From a virus: a stretch of 41,778 nt of DNA. The stretch lies in UHGV virus genome UHGV-0176688, one strand, 5' to 3'. Shown here piece after piece: positions 13,094 through 20,028 of this stretch; the first letter of the stretch is position 1; each line of letters starts with the position of its first letter. The notes beneath the pieces were generated by a model. That model was not told the origin of the DNA and made no database searches. It saw nothing but the letters and a program-made list of their open reading frames with translations. Position numbers and translations under genes: made by a program.

Positions 13094-13474
13094 TCAAGTC
13101 TTGGAACCATATAGTTCACGTAGCTTTTCTGCGACTGAAGATACGGCGATTTCACCAGTCGCAGCCCCTACAGTAAGGTCTGCCAGTTCAGGTGAATCAA
13201 ATACCTGCACCCCATTACGGCGTAGAAATAGCAGCGCACTGTTTAGCGCGGTACGCTTATTGGCATCATTGAATATATGCCCTCTCGCAGTAGCCACCAG
13301 GTAGGTTGCGGAGACTTCGAAAAGGTCGGTAATCTCTTCGTACACAACTCTGGCCTGGACTCTCCCGATAATGGCCTCTGCCCTACCCGGATCTGACATG
13401 CCAGGCAGGCCGCCGTAGCGGCTTATATTCGCATCATGAAGCGCAATAAGTTCTTCCGGTGATATATGCCTCAT
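13094..13474 (-). CDS. doc: Doc toxin (Fic/Doc family kinase)
   Basis: Near-identical to P1 Doc as recalled ([39 protein letters not shown]...); overlaps phd stop. Confidence 0.95.
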
Positions 13475-13701
13475 TATCGGTTAACCAGTTCCTTGTTGGT
13501 GGAGTCCAGGGTGTCAAACAGGGATGCAAATTCAGCATCCAGCGCTGCTTTTTTGTAGGCTTCGAAAGTAGCCTTGCTAACAATTACTGCTGGCTCACGG
13601 CCTCTGCGGGTGATTTCAACTTCTTCCCCGGCTTCAACATTGTTGAGCACTTCAGAAAGGTTGCCGCGCGCGGTACGGAAGTTAATGGATTGCATAAACA
13701 C
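13474..13701 (-). CDS. phd: Phd antitoxin
   Basis: [39 protein letters not shown] matches P1 Phd; directly upstream of doc. Confidence 0.9.
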
Positions 13702-13767: not shown

Positions 13768-14157
13768 TTAAATCACCGGACAATCATCAAATTCCCCACT
13801 TCGGGCATCATTAATGACATGAGTGATCACACCAAACACAGCATTACTCCCCGTGCATCCATCGTCATCCACTGGTAACGCCTCTTTCTTCCCGGTGCTT
13901 AAATCCTCCAGGTGCTGGCGCGGATACTTCCTGTATCTTTTTATGCGATATTCACCTTCCATAGCGCAGACAAGTAGCGAACCATCAACCGGAGTAAGTG
14001 AGGAATCGACCACCAGCAAAGCACCCTGCAATATTCCCTCACGGTGATGGCTATCAGCTGCCCGCATGAAGTAGGTTGCTGATGGATGCCTGATTAGTTG
14101 CTGATCAAGAGAAATTCGGCTTTCAACATAATCCGCCGCAGGAGAAGGGAAGCCCAT
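13768..14157 (-). CDS. humD: HumD (UmuD-prime-like S24 peptidase-fold protein)
   Basis: GFPSPAADYVESRISLDQQLIRHPSATYF matches the UmuD core; LexA box upstream; humD-phd-doc synteny as in P1. Confidence 0.8.
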   Translation of the reverse strand: MGFPSPAADYVESRISLDQQLIRHPSATYFMRAADSHHREGILQGALLVVDSSLTPVDGSLLVCAMEGEYRIKRYRKYPRQHLEDLSTGKKEALPVDDDGCTGSNAVFGVITHVINDARSGEFDDCPVI

Positions 14158-14176: not shown

Positions 14177-14196
14177 TACTGTTCATTTATACAGTA
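14177..14196. promoter_or_regulatory. LexA (SOS) box upstream of humD
   Basis: TACTGTtcatttatACAGTA fits CTGT-N8-ACAG, 20 bp upstream of humD start. Confidence 0.75.
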
Positions 14197-14422
14197 TACA
14201 TTAAAGGGACACCTTTGGTGCAAACGCGTTACGTACATCAACCACCGCTGATGATTTTGTGCTCTTTGCTACTATTCATCACCAACGGATCAGCGTAACC
14301 AAGCCCAGCATGAAGTAGTTCTGAACCGGATTAGAGAAATGCAAAACGATAATAGAGGCTAAATCGAGGTAGAAAACACATTGTTTAAGGCCACTAATTG
14401 TGGCCTCAAAGGGGAGAGATGC

Positions 14423-14947
14423 TTATTGGCTATGGCTAAAAATCAAATGAGACACTTCATGTGGTTGTAGCTCGTCAAGATCCGGGGCCACAAAACCTTT
14501 TCCGAAAGACTTCACAAGTAATTCGCCAGCCGCATCATTGTCACCTATTACACGAAAGTCATACGGCAGCATCGCAAGTTGACGGCGTAATCCTGCGGAG
14601 AAAGTCGAACCTAACAGCGCCCACGAATTGCCGCCCGCGTTGTGTACAGCTGCGCTCTTAAAAATAGACTCAGTTATCCATATTGGGCCATCTTTTAAAG
14701 GAAGATAGGTTCCCCAAAGTAACTGTCTGCCGTGTGATCGCGTGAAATACCGGGCCATCTTCGGATTGCTATGCTGCTTAGGTGCACCTGGTCTATATGT
14801 CTGATACCCAGCCAACATCCCATCAAACCTGTAGAGAGGGAATGTAACTACTCCTTCGCTTTCATCGATCCACTGTCTATATGGGTGTATATCATGGCGG
14901 TAGTTGCGAGTTAGCAAATGAGCTTCCAGCTTTCCAAATTTTGTCAT
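14423..14947 (-). CDS. Small standalone Toprim-domain protein
   Basis: Conserved Glu in IWITESIF and DxD in RVIGDNDAAGE; likely start ATG 14947 with RBS AGGAAG, overlapping upstream stop (ATGA). Confidence 0.55.
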   Translation of the reverse strand: MTKFGKLEAHLLTRNYRHDIHPYRQWIDESEGVVTFPLYRFDGMLAGYQTYRPGAPKQHSNPKMARYFTRSHGRQLLWGTYLPLKDGPIWITESIFKSAAVHNAGGNSWALLGSTFSAGLRRQLAMLPYDFRVIGDNDAAGELLVKSFGKGFVAPDLDELQPHEVSHLIFSHSQ

Positions 14948-15249
14948 ATTCCGTTCTTCCTGCATACTGGGCATGTGTTCTCTGTGAAATATGGGAAACT
15001 ATTATCCAGCTCATCTACCCACTGTTTATGGTCGAAGCAGAAAAATATCTCCCACGGCATTCCATATTCTTCCATCCATAGGCGGATCTGCATTTCTATT
15101 GGAATCGGCGGTATTGCAGACACCATATCAACAGGATAACAGTTCAGACGACGTTCCAGTTCTTCTACTCTCTTCTGGAGATGAAATATCCGATCCAGAT
15201 GCACACGCCGCTCCCGTGCCATTTTAAAATAAAGCTCGCCGGTCATCAT
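14944..15249 (-). CDS. Coiled-coil/zinc-ribbon-like small protein, paralog A
   Basis: C-terminus PWEIFFCFDHKQWVDELDNSFPYFTENTCPVCRK; tandem paralog of the next gene. Confidence 0.5.
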   Translation of the reverse strand: MMTGELYFKMARERRVHLDRIFHLQKRVEELERRLNCYPVDMVSAIPPIPIEMQIRLWMEEYGMPWEIFFCFDHKQWVDELDNSFPYFTENTCPVCRKNGI

Positions 15250-15533
15250 TAACGCCTACATTCAGGGCAAGAGTTCCCTTCTGCAAAATAGGGGAAACTG
15301 CTATCAAGCTCATCACACCATCCGCGATGGTCGTAGCACCAAAACGCCTCCCACGGCGCACGGAAATACTTCATCCACCAGGACACTCGATCTGGTATAT
15401 CTGCTGGTGGCAGCTCTTCTGGCAATAATTTGCCTGATAATTCCCTTTCCGCCCGTGCCAGCATTCCTTTTAGACTCGCATTTTCTTTTTCAAGAATCTC
15501 TACGCGAGCCTGTAACTCAGCTTTCGTTGGCAT
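15249..15533 (-). CDS. Coiled-coil/zinc-ribbon-like small protein, paralog B
   Basis: C-terminus PWEAFWCYDHRGWCDELDSSFPYFAEGNSCPECRR; start chosen at MPTK (RBS GAGG) to avoid overlap; longer start at 15605 possible. Confidence 0.5.
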   Translation of the reverse strand: MPTKAELQARVEILEKENASLKGMLARAERELSGKLLPEELPPADIPDRVSWWMKYFRAPWEAFWCYDHRGWCDELDSSFPYFAEGNSCPECRR

Positions 15534-16182
15534 GGCCCGCCTCATGTTTATCAGCCACCAGCGGCAATAAAGCCTTAGCCATTTCATGAACCAACATGGC
15601 ATCAATGACGCCTAGCGTATGGCCCGGCTTAATCTTTAATGCGGCCTCAAGATAGCCTCTTTCCAGAGTGGTTTTTACACTTTTCTTGGGCGCTTGTTGG
15701 GAACTATCCGGAAGATCCGAATTCCCAGCCTCATAAGCTATCCTCAGCCAGTGCAACGCCTTACTTTCAAGTTCATCGACTTTCTGCGACGCTATAAGAG
15801 CTGCTTCATACTGTTCACGAGTGACAACCGATGTAAATGCACTGCGATCAAGGTCACTGATATCGCAAATAATGCCATCCAAGGAATAATTCTTTGATGA
15901 TTGGTAATTTTTATGGCGCGCGCCAAAAAGAACCATAGCGCGACTACTACCTGGCATCGTAATGGATAGATGGCAAAAATCTTTTCCATCAGGCCATCCA
16001 CGCCCCTTAGATAATTCCTTCACTAACAAGTCAATCAGTGTCATAGCTTTACCATCCTTGCAAGGCGCTAAAGCTATTTTGGCAAGCTCCAATACTTCAT
16101 CTGCTGTGTATCCAGCACCGTGACCATACATTTCGATACGGGAAATAATATCTGAAATACGCTCTTTAGTGATTCTTGTCAT
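15517..16182 (-). CDS. Hypothetical protein (about 221 aa)
   Basis: ORF with start MTRITKER coupled to upstream stop. Confidence 0.5.
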   Translation of the reverse strand: MTRITKERISDIISRIEMYGHGAGYTADEVLELAKIALAPCKDGKAMTLIDLLVKELSKGRGWPDGKDFCHLSITMPGSSRAMVLFGARHKNYQSSKNYSLDGIICDISDLDRSAFTSVVTREQYEAALIASQKVDELESKALHWLRIAYEAGNSDLPDSSQQAPKKSVKTTLERGYLEAALKIKPGHTLGVIDAMLVHEMAKALLPLVADKHEAGHANES

Positions 16183-16388
16183 AGTTTTATTTCCTTGCAT
16201 GGTTCGCCTTTACGGCAAACAGCTACACGGTCATTTCTTACATTAACCACAGTCACCGTTCCGTCATCGCATTGAATAACGATGAAAGGGTGTTCATTCT
16301 CTTTTGTGCAATGTTGCTGTTCCCCTGCTGTAACAGTGAGGGGAATTAATAAAATAATAATTACTGCGAATTTACTAAATGTTGCCAT
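16179..16388 (-). CDS. Small secreted Cys-containing protein
   Basis: N-terminal signal-like segment MATFSKFAVIIILLIPLTVTA; four Cys in mature part. Confidence 0.5.
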   Translation of the reverse strand: MATFSKFAVIIILLIPLTVTAGEQQHCTKENEHPFIVIQCDDGTVTVVNVRNDRVAVCRKGEPCKEIKL

Positions 16389-16412
16389 AGCAATCTTTCT
16401 TTCTGTTTTTCA

Positions 16413-16706
16413 TTATGGTTGAATCCAGTTATCTTCAATAGCAATGCTCAATCTTTGTAACCATTCTGCTAATTTCAGCATTGCTTCTCTTTCGCTTAAA
16501 CCACGAGGAAAATCATCAAGCGATATTGTTGGCTTGAAGTTTCCCAAATTATCCATTTCAACGGTCAGATTTTGCTCCAGCACGGTATTCCTTACGCGGC
16601 TATTGTGCCGAAGCAAATATACTGAACGTGATTTATTGGTTTTGTGGTCGAACGTATATTCGGTAAGTATCATCTGGCTTCCGCCATGATTATTACCGCG
16701 CCACAT
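16413..16706 (-). CDS. Hypothetical protein
   Basis: 97-aa ORF; alternative start at MILTEYTF (16673). Confidence 0.4.
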   Translation of the reverse strand: MWRGNNHGGSQMILTEYTFDHKTNKSRSVYLLRHNSRVRNTVLEQNLTVEMDNLGNFKPTISLDDFPRGLSEREAMLKLAEWLQRLSIAIEDNWIQP

Positions 16707-16992
16707 AATTACTCCGTGTTAATTTTACCTTTATCGCGAACACCTTTACCGGTTTATCGCCGAAGTGCGGGTGTGTGATTATCTTAATTTCATAGCCGTC
16801 ATACGGAACATCAATTCTGCGGCTGGAATCGTCGCGCTTCGGATATCCCTTTGTGATAATCAGGCGGTCATACTCGCGGAACATAATTCGCTTATTCCAG
16901 TAGTCATTACACAGGCGATACTCTTCTGTTTTCTCTCCGCGAATCATTGCATCGAAGTATTCACCTTTGACGGCAAGTTGCAGGTTAGCCAC
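16693..16992 (-). CDS. ASCH/PUA-like (DUF3850-type) small protein
   Basis: GTG start 6 nt after RBS AAGGAG; KGEYFDAMIRGEKTEEYR...RLIITKGYP pattern. Confidence 0.45.
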   Translation of the reverse strand: MANLQLAVKGEYFDAMIRGEKTEEYRLCNDYWNKRIMFREYDRLIITKGYPKRDDSSRRIDVPYDGYEIKIITHPHFGDKPVKVFAIKVKLTRSNYVAR

Positions 16993-17236
16993 GGTTAACT
17001 CCTTGCTGTGTAGCGTCGAGTAATAAATCCCACAACCGCTGAGAGCAATTTCCGCATGTACAGCGCTGACCCACAACGTTTATCGCGTTGCTGATTTCCG
17101 GCGTTACCTGTTTAGGAACCATAACCCAACCATCCGGAGTTACCGGAGAGTTGCCAGCCAGTCTACGCAAAACAGCCTTAACAGCCTCAATACGGTCATC
17201 ATCGCAACTTTCCAGCGTATCTATGCGGTCGAGCAT
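16985..17236 (-). CDS. Hypothetical protein
   Basis: 83-aa ORF whose stop overlaps the downstream GTG start by 8 nt. Confidence 0.4.
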   Translation of the reverse strand: MLDRIDTLESCDDDRIEAVKAVLRRLAGNSPVTPDGWVMVPKQVTPEISNAINVVGQRCTCGNCSQRLWDLLLDATQQGVNRG

Positions 17237-17329
17237 GATGATTGCGTTATCAATATCAGGATTGCCGGTCCACTCATTACCGCGATTGGATTCGGCAGCC
17301 TGGTTGCCGTGTACTGTTTGATTCTCGGC

Positions 17330-17932
17330 TTAACCCAGTCTGTCGTCGCTGCATGAATGCCCTTCCAGCCAGGCCAGTGCTTGTCGCATGAAATACGCAA
17401 TATGCTTGCCGTGGTAATCGTCTTCATCGATGTGAAAAGCGATACTGCGGATGTATTCAATTGCGTTTTCAATGGCCTCCGGCGTTATCGGCGTTGACAT
17501 ATTTTGATATTGGAGTGCCAAGACGCGGCTGGCATCCTCAACACCTTTAACTGCATCTGCGCAGTAGTTATAGCGATTGCATTCCACTAACTTTTGCTTT
17601 AGGTTTTCAATTGCTTGCGCGATATCAGCCTGTATTACCGGCGCTGGCGGTGCGGTATAAAACTTCGTCCCCAACGGCAACAACTTCATCGCTTTTTCTC
17701 CCTTAATGATGCGATAAGTTGATTTCCCGCCAAGGTCTACCGTTCCATCCATAACAAGGCCATATCGCTTCTCTGAAACTTCACCAATAGGCTCTGCTTC
17801 CAGCGATGCCTGTGCGATACGAAACACATTGGCAAGCAGGCTGTCTGTAGATTGGTTATCGTGCGCCGGGTCGCTCAGGAAACCAGTGATGAATGATTTA
17901 ATTTCCGCGTTTTCTCTGGTAATAGTGGTCAT
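17330..17932 (-). CDS. Hypothetical protein
   Basis: 200-aa ORF overlapping upstream stop (ATGA). Confidence 0.55.
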   Translation of the reverse strand: MTTITRENAEIKSFITGFLSDPAHDNQSTDSLLANVFRIAQASLEAEPIGEVSEKRYGLVMDGTVDLGGKSTYRIIKGEKAMKLLPLGTKFYTAPPAPVIQADIAQAIENLKQKLVECNRYNYCADAVKGVEDASRVLALQYQNMSTPITPEAIENAIEYIRSIAFHIDEDDYHGKHIAYFMRQALAWLEGHSCSDDRLG

Positions 17933-18138
17933 TTGTTAATCCTTAAAACTTTATGCCCTGGCGCAAAAGCACGTGTTTTGTCTTTGCTTATTCGCCACCC
18001 GTCTTTACGGGCCTCTTTTGCACAACCAGACCATGACGTACCGATATACTCACCGAAGTCTGGCACTGGATATACACCTTCCGTACACTGGCGGCAGTCA
18101 CAATAGAGATGCATGGTGTAACTTGCGGCAATAGCCAT
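17929..18138 (-). CDS. Small Cys-rich protein
   Basis: ATG 18138 with RBS AAGGAG 7 nt upstream; MAIAASYTMHLYCDCRQCTEG... Confidence 0.5.
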   Translation of the reverse strand: MAIAASYTMHLYCDCRQCTEGVYPVPDFGEYIGTSWSGCAKEARKDGWRISKDKTRAFAPGHKVLRINK

Positions 18139-18139
18139 A

Positions 18140-18328
18140 TCACTCTCCTTTAGTGCGCAAATGGTTTCTCCAGCGGTTTTGCGCCGCGCTGGGCTTTTTG
18201 CAAAAACCACAATCCATCATCCCGTAATATTTCATCAACCCCATCCGTCGGTTGCTGAGTCTCACCCACTGCCAGACGCCAGGAGCGTTTCTACGAACTA
18301 ACAGAATCTTTGCTTTACGGTTTTTCAT
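18140..18328 (-). CDS. Small basic protein, MKNRKAK family copy 1
   Basis: 62 aa; start overlaps stop of copy 2 (ATGA). Confidence 0.45.
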   Translation of the reverse strand: MKNRKAKILLVRRNAPGVWQWVRLSNRRMGLMKYYGMMDCGFCKKPSAAQNRWRNHLRTKGE

Positions 18329-18501
18329 CTTACTGCGTACCCTTTCTTCCGCCTGTTCTGTGACGCAGTAGGCTTACGCTTTGCGGCAAAAGCCACCTGA
18401 CCAAATGGATGGAGTACCGCTATCTTATGGTTGCTAATAACCAGCTCCACCACACGCACAGGTCGCTGTAAAAAAAGTCGTTTTGCCTTACGGTTTTTCA
18501 T
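18325..18501 (-). CDS. Small basic protein, MKNRKAK family copy 2
   Basis: 58 aa MKNRKAKRLFLQRPVRVVELVISNHKIAVLHPFGQVAFAAKRKPTASQNRRKKGYAVR; RBS GGAGAG; below track cutoff. Confidence 0.4.
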   Translation of the reverse strand: MKNRKAKRLFLQRPVRVVELVISNHKIAVLHPFGQVAFAAKRKPTASQNRRKKGYAVR

Positions 18502-18593
18502 CGCTTTGCTCTCCTGCGTCTCTTTGCTGCTCGTCGTGCCGCTGCAATACCGGTATGGCGGCGCTTTGGTGCCGGGATGATGTTGTCAGCCAT
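18498..18593 (-). CDS. Tiny arginine-rich peptide (31 aa), speculative
   Basis: MADNIIPAPKRRHTGIAAARRAAKRRRRAKR; stop overlaps next ATG; weak RBS. Confidence 0.2.
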   Translation of the reverse strand: MADNIIPAPKRRHTGIAAARRAAKRRRRAKR

Positions 18594-18673
18594 CAGGACA
18601 TGTGGCTTTGCAATTAGCGCAGAAGCCCAAAAACGAGTCGGGTACGGTAACAAGCCGATACATGCCACACGCA

Positions 18674-19153
18674 TTACTCACCTTCTTTGATGCGAATGCC
18701 AGCGGCGCGTGGCACATTAACTTCCACGATGCGCACAGTTGGTTTGTACATCTCAATCGCTGTCAGCCAGTCAGCGCCGGTCATATGCTTTTCTGCATCG
18801 CCATTAGTCCATTGAACCGGCACGCCAATAGCTTTCATCGCAATTTCTATTTCCCCGGCAATGGCGCTTTTCCCGCAACCAGTAAAACCAGAGACAACGA
18901 CAAGAACTTCGCCTTTGGCTGGTTTTATTTCCCGCGCCTCCACCTCTGCAATTCGGCACATAGCATCGATATTTGTGTCTTCCAGGCGTTTAACTTCATC
19001 CAATAATGCCAACGCGATATCTGGCGAAAAGTGCTTCATAAAATCGTTAAGCGCATTAATTCGCTGATCGAAAGGCATTACAGGCGCTTCACCAGCAATT
19101 TTTGTTTTTTCAGCAATTTCACGAAGCTTTTGATAGTCAATTTTGTTTGTCAT
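18674..19153 (-). CDS. Hypothetical protein with Walker-A-like motif
   Basis: GFTGCGKS fits GxxxxGKS; 159 aa. Confidence 0.45.
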   Translation of the reverse strand: MTNKIDYQKLREIAEKTKIAGEAPVMPFDQRINALNDFMKHFSPDIALALLDEVKRLEDTNIDAMCRIAEVEAREIKPAKGEVLVVVSGFTGCGKSAIAGEIEIAMKAIGVPVQWTNGDAEKHMTGADWLTAIEMYKPTVRIVEVNVPRAAGIRIKEGE

Positions 19154-20028
19154 GCCACTACCTCTTCGAATTTCAACTCCAATTGGTCACCCCAGATTTC
19201 ACATGATTCGGAACACGAACCAGTATCAAACCGCTTGGCCTGCACCATCGCCTGATACAAATTTCTGTAGTCGCTGTCGGCATACATTCTGGCAATCCCG
19301 TCAAGCGTCAGGTGACCACGGTACATAACGTCTTTACCTGTTCTGCGATGACCATCCCTGACGTGTTTGCCTGTAACCAGCTCATTAAAAATTCGCATCA
19401 GACCAGGTTCGTCTTTACATGCAAGCCCCAGCTTTTGCGTTGACTTTTTGATGCAAAAAACACAGTTCCCGAGGTGCTCCGGGATTTGCAAATCAAAAGG
19501 TTGTTTTCGCCACCACCGGATAACATCCGACTTATCAAAATCTGACAGCTCGGCAAGATACCGGACGCCCGGTTTCGGTTTCAGCCTACGGGGTTCGTCC
19601 GCACGAATACCCAGCCATGTGATGTAATTCCCTCGCCCAAAATGGTCATCGCAATATTTCGTGAAAGGGGTGAGTTTTAGCCTGTCAGTACAGAACGCGC
19701 CGCCGATGTATGGCGTACCGTACTTTTTAACCATGTCCATAAACGGTTTAAGCACCGGCATTCGCGTCTGAATATCCTTTGGTTCCCATTCCGTATAACC
19801 ATTTGGCTGCCCAAGTTCTGGATTTATATCGACCTGCAACACCGTTAGCGGTACATTCCAGAACTTCACAACCTCACGAATAAAGCGATACGTCAGAGGA
19901 TGTTCACAGCCGGTATCCATAAAAATGAAATGGACGCTAGCGCCAGCTTTTCGCTGTGCTTCCATCAGATGAACGAGATAAGCCGATGTTCGTCCACCTG
20001 AAAAGCTGACGACTTGATGCATACTCAC
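19150..20028 (-). CDS. PAPS reductase-like PP-loop protein (CysH/DndC superfamily)
   Basis: PP-loop VVSFSGGRTS and FMDTGCEHPLTYRF motif. Confidence 0.75.
   Translation of the reverse strand: MSMHQVVSFSGGRTSAYLVHLMEAQRKAGASVHFIFMDTGCEHPLTYRFIREVVKFWNVPLTVLQVDINPELGQPNGYTEWEPKDIQTRMPVLKPFMDMVKKYGTPYIGGAFCTDRLKLTPFTKYCDDHFGRGNYITWLGIRADEPRRLKPKPGVRYLAELSDFDKSDVIRWWRKQPFDLQIPEHLGNCVFCIKKSTQKLGLACKDEPGLMRIFNELVTGKHVRDGHRRTGKDVMYRGHLTLDGIARMYADSDYRNLYQAMVQAKRFDTGSCSESCEIWGDQLELKFEEVVA

Follow-up and report, generated by a model that had tools for sequence, protein, structure and literature searches.

A Rad/ORF75-family gene on a P1-like phage-plasmid encodes a predicted bare DnaG-type primase core with a probable role against retrons

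Introduction

Rad (retron anti-defense), the product of PhiSP15 ORF75, is one of very few known phage inhibitors of retrons. It was described as a protein of 189 aa with a 'primase/helicase and TOPRIM/RNase domain', encoded in a tRNA-rich region (bioRxiv 10.1101/2023.03.15.532788). Upon expression of Rad/ORF75, T5-like phages, and also T7, form plaques on cells with retrons Eco2/Ec67, Eco7/Ec78, and others. According to the preprint, Rad neutralises retrons Ec67, Ec78, Ec83, Ec48, and Se72, reduces the retron ncRNA and msDNA but not the RT or effector transcripts, and is weakened by the mutations R13E, P33T, I88T, D135H, and E156H (bioRxiv 10.1101/2023.03.15.532788). Anti-retron activity is documented only for the SP15, Privateer, Shigella-phage, and vB_Sen_I1 homologs, ranging from strong to moderate (bioRxiv 10.1101/2023.03.15.532788). 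In the peer-reviewed version, escape from retrons Eco2 and Eco7 is traced to ORF75, and deletions of around 8 kb in the T5-like tRNA-rich region are viable (PMC11555353). The claim of ncRNA degradation rests on transcript levels and is found in the preprint only; the peer-reviewed version omits it and leaves the mechanism open (PMC11555353). In later work, ORF75 is called a 'retron inhibitor gene' but did not enable escape from the FORC 82 type I-A retron (PMC12475279).

A Toprim core with a Glu and a DxD motif is also found in P2 OLD, PARIS AriB, Gabija GajA, the retron Eco2 TOPRIM, and RNase M5, and in the RNA-polymerase domains (RPDs) of DnaG-type primases. The protein studied here carries the same core. 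It is encoded in the window, by which we mean the whole 41,778-nt stretch of UHGV virus genome UHGV-0176688 that was analysed, a P1-like phage-plasmid with phd/doc, humD, and backbone matches to P1, P7, D6, RCS47, and SJ46.

Results

The gene and its expression signals

An earlier note, made from the sequence alone, had placed an ORF of 174 aa at 14423-14947. The ORF exists and lies on the minus strand, which the note had left unstated (Table 1). Read from the sequence, its start codon (ATG at 14947) shares the ATGA at 14947-14944 with the stop of the ORF upstream, and the homolog in PhiR41_1, 98% identical to the window protein, has the same annotated start. An alternative 183-aa reading from 14974 is not conserved. 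The ORF is, on comparative grounds, a real gene and not a chance ORF, since 1,638 homologous clusters, 489 phage records, and 145 E. coli plasmids match it.

Table 1 Features of the locus, with positions counted along the whole window.
Feature	Position	Strand	Remarks
Upstream ORF, 101 aa, phrog_3797	14944..15249	(-)	co-transcribed; invariant C-x2-H-x18-C-x2-C
Shine-Dalgarno-like AGGAAG	14956..14961	(-)	8 nt upstream of the ATG; read from the sequence
Rad/ORF75-family CDS, 174 aa	14423..14947	(-)	predicted DnaG-type primase RPD without zinc-binding and helicase-binding domains
N-terminal primase subdomain, ~residues 1-85	14693..14947	(-)	motifs I-III
Toprim subdomain, ~residues 86-174	14426..14692	(-)	motifs IV-VI
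Terminator-like hairpin	14384..14410	(-)	directly after the stop codon; 11-bp stem, 5 GC pairs
Perfect LexA box	14179..14194		beyond the hairpin; followed by humD

The Toprim residues pointed out earlier are indeed present, with E93 in IWITESIFKS and D136 and D138 in RVIGDNDAAGE. The window protein has no match in Pfam, 0 matches to the PADLOC models even at E<=10, and no match in a sequence search of PDB chains. It matches PHROG 849 'DNA primase' with an E value of 1e-53, over profile positions 143-333 only, which is the middle of the profile. Given that Pfam and PADLOC gave no match, the Toprim assignment rests on the motifs, PHROG 849, and the predicted fold. The mid-profile match had prompted the idea that the gene is a truncated or split fragment of a longer primase gene. 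This idea was rejected, because standalone homologs of the same length occur across hundreds of clusters and the start is conserved together with its Shine-Dalgarno sequence.

Predicted fold and primase motifs

The AlphaFold (AF2) model of the window protein, built on 12 homologs, reached a pLDDT of 90.3 and a pTM of 0.86. Ranks 1-38 of a Foldseek search of the PDB are taken without exception by DnaG-type primase RPDs, comprising the DnaG proteins of S. aureus, E. coli, Aquifex, Pseudomonas, Mycobacterium, and Bacillus as well as T7 gp4 and T4 gp61, with E values of 1e-5 to 1e-3 and TM scores up to 0.68. Because these alignments span 160-240 columns, both the primase-specific N-terminal subdomain and the Toprim are covered, and about 165 residues of the model match the primase RPDs. 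In BFVD, the best matches come from T5-like phages of Providencia and Proteus (Privateer), as proteins of 165-173 aa that are named 'DNA primase'. Furthermore, the family profile aligns with the E. coli DnaG RPD at 96.5% probability (hhalign), with motifs II-V in register. The protein had earlier been thought too small to be a primase. The structural matches at ranks 1-38 contradict this, as 174 aa is the natural size of a complete DnaG/T7-type RPD; what is missing relative to a full primase is the zinc-binding domain (ZBD) and the helicase-binding domain, not the core.

All six DnaG motifs are present in the window protein. Motif I is formed by H10-L-L-x-R14, motif II by G43..G47-Y-Q-x-Y51-x-P53, and motif III by K57..N61-P62..R66-Y67-F68-T69 plus W78-G79. 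In the Toprim half, motif IV is E93-S-I-F-K97, motif V is D136-N-D138-A-A-G141, and motif VI is D156-L-D158-E159. The motif residues are conserved in 125-137 of the 137 standalone family members: Y67 and G79 are kept in all 137, E93 in 136, R14 and Y51 in 134 each, D138 in 126, and D136 in 125. The near-invariant positions among these members are R14, G47, Y51, P53, K57, N61, R/K66, Y67, and G79, and in the Toprim half E93, F96, D136, D138, G141, and D156. The protein begins at motif I with no Cys/His cluster, and thus has no zinc-binding domain, and it ends around 15 residues past motif VI with no helicase-interaction domain. From these two borders, the window protein is predicted to be the bare, complete catalytic core of a DnaG/T7-gp4-type primase. 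It shares with the RPDs of E. coli and S. aureus DnaG, T7 gp4, and T4 gp61 the two-subdomain fold, motifs I-VI, and the C-terminal acidic motif; unlike DnaG-type primases, it has no zinc-binding, helicase-binding, or helicase domain and no helicase neighbor.

The same searches bear on the suggestion of the earlier note that the protein could be a nuclease of the kind used by OLD or PARIS-type effectors. Taken more widely, this reading makes it a Toprim nuclease that serves defence or exclusion, comparable to OLD, PARIS AriB, Gabija GajA, or RNase M5. In its favor, the E/DxD triad of a Toprim is there, tRNA-cutting Toprim nucleases are common in prophage-borne defence systems, and the preprint suggests RNA degradation by Rad. 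Against this reading, OLD, AriB, and GajA structures are not found among the 50 best PDB matches listed, and RNase M5 appears from rank 39 only (E 0.014), over around 100 columns of the Toprim half alone. In RNase M5, an N-terminal Toprim is followed by an RNA-binding domain, whereas the Toprim here is the C-terminal half behind the primase subdomain, which is itself conserved. The earlier note had found no adjacent ATPase partner, and we likewise find no ATPase in the ten flanking ORFs or in the protein. The known defence Toprim nucleases, several of which act on tRNA, share with the Rad family a role in phage-host conflict; unlike the Rad homolog, which opposes immunity, they are ATPase-coupled or RT-fused host or prophage effectors. 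Rad acts for the phage against host immunity and not as an abortive-infection toxin. The OLD/PARIS/Gabija-type nuclease was thus rejected on the PADLOC, fold, and ATPase evidence; the idea is largely refuted, and we consider a defence effector of this kind exceedingly improbable.

Two versions of the active site

In DnaG, motif IV (EGxxD) has a second acidic residue; the window protein has Lys (K97) in its place, as do the T5-like and Jersey-like homologs. The effect of this D-to-K change was judged from covariation. The K97 sequences have D158 in 39/39 cases and mostly Ala at position 100, whereas the D/E97 sequences (n=91) have Gly at 158 in 68 cases and Arg or Lys at 100 in 80. Thus, compared with DnaG, the Lys in motif IV comes with a compensating Asp in motif VI. 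This charge swap between K97/D158 and D97/R100/G158, with K97 and D158 coupled in all 39 sequences, indicates that K97 is not a sign of decay and that acid and base have swapped places in a maintained catalytic centre. The two co-varying versions, D97/R100/G158 and K97/A100/D158, provide ready-made mutational probes.

Relationship to Rad/ORF75

PhiSP15 ORF75 is E0157_075 in AP019559, a 189-aa protein whose gene adjoins tRNA-Ser and tRNA-Met; it was the tRNA-island context of the homologs that led us to the paper describing Rad (Azam et al., bioRxiv 10.1101/2023.03.15.532788). The window protein is 43% identical to it over 167 of 174 aa (BLASTP, E 2e-32). Counted from the internal Met of Rad, the mutation-sensitive residues R13, P33, I88, D135, and E156 correspond to R14, P37, I91, D138, and E159 of the window protein, and all five are identical. 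The K-type signature ES[IV]FK...D[LV]DE[LM] is common to Rad, the Privateer-type homolog, and the window protein. Like Rad, the window protein is standalone, falls in the same size class with its 174 aa, has a primase/Toprim-type domain, and comes from a non-essential accessory gene of a tRNA-carrying phage. Identity to Rad is 46% for the active Privateer-type homolog and 42.5% for the window protein, which is thus about as distant from Rad as an active homolog and inside the range with shown activity. By sequence comparison, the gene adds a new member, carried by a temperate phage-plasmid, to the Rad/ORF75 family. A literature search for the name 'T5.076', under which the gene is found in T5, gave no result.

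Several features set the window protein apart from Rad. It has no counterpart of the 17-aa N-terminal extension annotated in SP15, its clade has Tyr in place of E81, and it is a predicted inhibitor. Its gene closes an Ead/Ea22-type operon beside humD on a P1-like phage-plasmid, a temperate element, whereas Rad belongs to a lytic phage and is encoded within the tRNA-rich region there. The homology to Rad/ORF75, an experimentally identified retron inhibitor, supports the anti-defence role that the earlier note had suggested as one of its options. The note had also set a structural match to a replication-type domain against such a role. The match was found as far as the fold is concerned, but the homolog has a documented counter-defence phenotype, and the opposition stands only in its structural part.

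The locus in P1-like phage-plasmids

The gene had been assigned to an accessory operon, and our analysis agrees: it is the last gene of a long leftward operon of the Ead/Ea22 type. The genes upstream in this operon are Ead/Ea22-like and lambdoid-type accessory genes without assigned function. The exact gene was matched in 145 of 5,426 complete E. coli genomes, on plasmids only. Full-length copies are held by 60 of these 145 plasmids, and the other 85 keep only the last ~210 nt, unannotated, so the gene is often decayed in P1-like plasmids. In the sister lineage (PhiR41_1, pAVS0575-B), the order is the gene, humD, apbC, and metG. The element also carries five tRNA genes, tRNA-Tyr and tRNA-Ser among them, at 12 kb from the Rad-family gene; tRNA-Tyr and tRNA-Ser are the species depleted by type I-A retron effectors.

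The slot directly upstream of the LexA box and humD is occupied by hot/lxr in canonical P1 and by the Rad-family gene here, and the two are allelic in position. The sequences of the two cassettes are unrelated, hot being a homolog of the Pol III theta subunit. No trace of the Toprim gene was found in canonical P1 by tblastn and blastn. The possibility that the 'lxr' of P1 is a decayed antisense copy was rejected on this basis; remnants do occur in other P1-like plasmids.

The allelic position is one reason to weigh an accessory primase of relaxed specificity, which would prime single-stranded DNA independently of a helicase for replication of the phage-plasmid or for restart after damage. Such an enzyme fits a slot that carries replisome accessories, namely hot and the LexA-controlled humD, and the full DnaG RPD fold and motifs are what it would need. 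Standalone Toprim primases and standalone primase zinc ribbons have been described in mobile elements and jumbo phages, and one family member (P0126) has an N-terminal zinc-finger domain. The absence of a ZBD from the window protein speaks against it, since in T7 the core alone, deprived of its ZBD, yields nothing but random dinucleotides and does so very slowly. The frequent decay of the gene in P1-like plasmids is a further point against it.

The translationally coupled 101-aa ORF directly upstream was considered as a zinc-binding domain supplied in trans, for which there is a precedent among primases in the literature; the spacing of its Cys/His motif, of a type like that of E. coli DnaG, had prompted the idea. 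This candidate was rejected. The AF2 model of the 101-aa protein is of moderate confidence (pLDDT 73) and has no fold match in the PDB, and hhalign comparison with the primase ZBDs of T7, E. coli, and T5 gave probabilities of <=0.3%. A neighbor with a zinc motif was found neither in 26 other lineages nor in PhiR41_1. The neighbor is thus neither a primase ZBD nor a conserved partner, which counts against the accessory primase as well.

Family size, domain fusions, and gene neighborhoods

An exhaustive profile search recovered 1,638 clusters (50% identity) at E<=1e-3, and the best 150 of these clusters are mostly standalone proteins of 160-200 aa. T5-like phages carry the family gene (T5.076, DT57C gp126) within a tRNA array and have a separate helicase-primase-polymerase module, in which the 296-aa primase has a CHC2 zinc finger. 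In these phages, the family gene is, unlike that of DnaG, dispensable, and it coexists with a bona fide replicative primase. When 20 longer family members were scanned against Pfam, no helicase domain was detected, and the extra regions of several of them were without assignment. Fusion to a CCA-adding enzyme was observed twice and in both orders, in P0124 (PolyA_pol, RNAbd, and HD followed by the RPD) and in P0070. The other fusion partners are cytidylyltransferase, HAD, Arr-like ADP-ribosyltransferase, GNAT, Mom, and ParB_N domains, along with the one zinc-finger domain of P0126.

Around 170 fetched loci were grouped into 31 lineages (70% identity clusters), and the neighbors of the family gene were counted. 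Genes for tRNA lie within 3 kb in 7/31 lineages and within 10 kb in 10/31, CCA-adding enzymes are near the gene in 4-5/31, and RtcB in 2, all as counts that lack a genome-wide background control and that come from markers less universal and sensitive for replication than for RtcB or CCA-adding enzymes. In one lineage, a CCA-adding enzyme gene is directly upstream in 10 of 12 loci, at <=800 nt in 7 of these; in Vibrio phage F99 it overlaps the family gene, and in three more lineages it is 3-9 kb off. In an Erwinia jumbo phage, RtcB is encoded 30 nt downstream of the family gene, and in the other lineage it lies at 3.1 kb. The copy of the Erwinia jumbo phage is itself truly split into two ORFs. 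Genes for NAD+ salvage (NAMPT, NMNAT-Nudix) are near the family gene in 5/31 lineages, PolA in 1/31, and an SNF2 helicase in 2/31, and no helicase of the DnaB/gp4 type was detected within 10 kb in any of the 31 lineages. Overall, the family mostly sits in accessory or counter-defence islands rather than in replisome modules.

These neighborhoods contribute on both sides to the case of the accessory primase. In Jerseyviruses and in locus L025, the family gene and an SNF2 helicase gene are translationally coupled and close a replication operon, and in a Privateervirus the copy is located among DNA-metabolism genes. A replicative primase paired with its helicase was rejected, as the helicase of the DnaB/gp4 type is lacking from every lineage and the neighbor in the Jerseyviruses and L025 is SNF2. 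T5-like phages have their own replicative primase and tolerate loss of the Rad-family gene, and priming would leave the anti-retron phenotype unexplained. We therefore regard the accessory primase as improbable. From the accessory, non-replisomal contexts and the replicative primase of the T5-like phages, the gene would not be replicative in role.

The fusions and neighbors point more directly to tRNA. In a second alternative, the primase-like core would extend or trim the damaged 3' acceptor ends of tRNAs and hand them on to a CCA-adding enzyme or RtcB; a templated fill-in on the 5' strand after nicking of the acceptor stem is one possible reaction. Retron escape would then be a consequence of repair, which makes this a rival for the mechanism and not for the anti-retron phenotype. 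The fusions to CCA-adding enzymes in both orders, the CCA-adding enzymes upstream, overlapping, or nearby in several lineages, the close RtcB genes, the siting in or beside tRNA arrays in 7 of the 31 lineages, and the fusions to HAD, Arr-like, and cytidylyltransferase domains all agree with it. A core without a ZBD, judged from the T7 data, would be poor at de novo initiation and would need no ZBD for extension of a 3' end. The acceptor stems of tRNAs are nicked by the Eco2 TOPRIM. In the case of Eco7, tRNA-Tyr is depleted by PtuAB (PMC11555353). Eco2 and Eco7, both targeting tRNA, are the two retrons that ORF75 defeats in the peer-reviewed work (PMC11555353).

Other observations weaken the link to tRNA repair. 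The tRNA regions of large phages gather many unrelated accessory genes, which the neighbor counts, uncontrolled for genomic background and drawn from a marker set more sensitive for CCA enzymes and RtcB than for diverse replisome genes, do not separate from functional partners. The P1-like copy has no RNA-repair gene beside it. To our knowledge, the Ec48 effector does not target tRNA, and we know of no DnaG-type enzyme that acts on tRNA, which counts against repair of this kind. Finally, the protection against Ec48 and Se72 and the lower ncRNA and msDNA reported in the preprint argue against a mechanism through tRNA only. On balance, tRNA-end repair has a modest chance of being the correct mechanism.

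Discussion

We propose that the P1-like phage-plasmid probably uses this primase-core protein of the Rad family as a counter-defence against the retrons of its host. We infer the inhibition of retrons by the window copy from its homolog. A nucleic acid would be bound as substrate in the primase cleft of the protein, where the centre formed by E93, D136, D138, D156, D158, and E159 may act with Mg2+. As reported for Rad, the candidate substrate is the retron ncRNA/msDNA, whose RNA-DNA junction resembles a primer-template, and the chemistry at the centre might be either cleavage or nucleotide addition. Since active-site mutants of Rad are impaired, the active centre is needed for the function of Rad.

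Several points weigh against this proposal. The identity to Rad is only 43%, the tested homologs vary from strong to moderate, and ORF75 had no effect on the FORC 82 type I-A retron. The degradation of ncRNA rests on transcript levels in the preprint. A complete primase-type core with conserved motifs I-III is unexpected for a simple RNase. Destruction of msDNA triggers several retrons (PMC12475279 among the sources), so the reported mechanism of lowering ncRNA and msDNA is not obviously protective during infection. The neighborhoods and fusions of the family, with CCA-adding enzymes, RtcB, and tRNA arrays, point to tRNA metabolism instead of retron RNA; the gene studied here, for its part, lies outside any tRNA-rich island.

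The repeated fusion and adjacency to tRNA-repair enzymes provide a concrete and testable alternative mechanism. If tRNA-end repair were true, a DnaG-type polymerase would for the first time have a role in RNA repair, and the family would define a new class of RNA-repair enzyme. Repair would also explain the fusion and adjacency of the family to CCA-adding enzymes and its siting in tRNA arrays, and would let phages and phage-plasmids resist any tRNA-cutting effector, such as the Eco2 TOPRIM, Eco7 PtuAB, and possibly PARIS or OLD.

The recognition of a complete DnaG-type core in place of a generic 'Toprim/RNase' domain changes which biochemical activities merit testing. Besides lytic T5-like phages, the family also occurs in temperate phage-plasmids of the P1-like type from E. 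coli, Salmonella, and Shigella. P1-like phage-plasmids spread resistance genes, and an anti-retron gene on such elements could affect both the establishment of the plasmid and the remaining immunity of the host.

Gene context of the Rad-like gene

The Rad-like gene lies between an upstream pair of small genes and, downstream, humD and phd/doc. The upstream pair are tandem paralogues, both belonging to the uncharacterised family phrog_3797, and the first is translationally coupled to the Rad-like gene through an ATGA overlap. Each paralogue is predicted to consist of a long N-terminal helix followed by a C-terminal module, and this module holds an invariant C-x2-H-x18-C-x2-C tetrad in both. The possibility that the first paralogue is a primase zinc ribbon was ruled out by profile comparison, and a fold search with its model, which was of moderate confidence, returned no fold match. 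Further along the same strand, the P1-like backbone contains an extended operon, running leftward, of accessory genes of lambdoid type. It includes Ead/Ea22-like genes, phrog_60-type mosaic genes, which have N- or C-terminal modules in common, and one ORF that looked PAPS-reductase-like judging by its sequence alone. On the other side, humD, encoding a UmuD' homolog, is preceded by a perfect LexA box and followed by phd/doc. Canonical P1 differs here: the place of the Rad-like gene is taken by hot, which encodes a Pol III theta homolog, and by lxr, an ORF on the opposite strand.

Coordinates of the Rad-like gene and other features of the window
Feature	Position	Strand	Remark
Five tRNA genes	776-2425		Arg-TCT, Tyr-GTA, Thr-TGT, Ser-TGA, Met-CAT
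phd/doc	13094-13701
humD	13768-14157
LexA box	14179-14194		CTGTATAAATGAACAG
Rad-like gene	14423-14947	-	174 aa
phrog_3797 paralogue, first	14944-15249	-
phrog_3797 paralogue, second	15249-15605	-
Accessory operon	15517-20028	-
PAPS-reductase-like candidate	19150-20028	-	292 aa

Two residue types in the active site

In the family alignment (window-protein numbering), about two-thirds of the members carry D97/R100/G158 and about one-third K97/A100/D158, with K97 coupled to D158 in all 39 of 39 sequences. The two combinations represent a family-wide charge swap within the active site. Rad and every tested Rad homolog examined are of the K type.

Decay or replacement in P1-like plasmids

The putative anti-retron gene is recurrently decayed or replaced in E. 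coli P1-like plasmids. Among the 145 E. coli plasmids matching the Rad-like gene, 85 have kept no more of it than the last ~210 nt, unannotated, as at 2501-2712 of locus L091 (NZ_CP027443), and in the remnant-bearing P1-like plasmids two opposite-strand ORFs are inserted between the remnant and humD. A sister lineage of P1-like plasmids, formed by PhiR41_1 (L003) and pAVS0575-B (L092), carries a full metG (methionyl-tRNA synthetase) and apbC/mrp just past humD, two to three genes away from the Rad-like gene.

Neighbourhoods elsewhere in the family

A phage record search found family matches in 57 Erwinia phage records. In Erwinia phage vB_EamM_Special G (L093, 3908-5767) the family member is broken up into the ORFs gp48 and gp49, each annotated 'DNA primase', with RtcB (Pfam E 4e-126) lying 12-30 nt downstream. 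In five lineages an NMNAT-Nudix gene and NAMPT, which together form a module for NAD+ salvage or reconstitution, are found no more than a few kb from the family gene (loci L062, L077, L073, L096 from Stenotrophomonas DLP_6, L162/L173 and L163). Genes for a small kinase and a metallophosphoesterase frequently lie close by, and these loci look like counter-defence islands.

tRNA genes of the element

The five tRNAs differ from the sets of other P1-like phages, namely Asn/Thr/Met-Ile in P1, P7 and RCS47, Ser/Thr/Asn in D6 and Tyr/Thr/Met in Ro157c2YLVW. Type I-A retron effectors deplete tRNA-Tyr and tRNA-Ser (bioRxiv 10.1101/2023.03.15.532788; PMC12475279). Because both species are carried here, the element may carry 'defence-cancelling' tRNAs alongside its Rad homolog.
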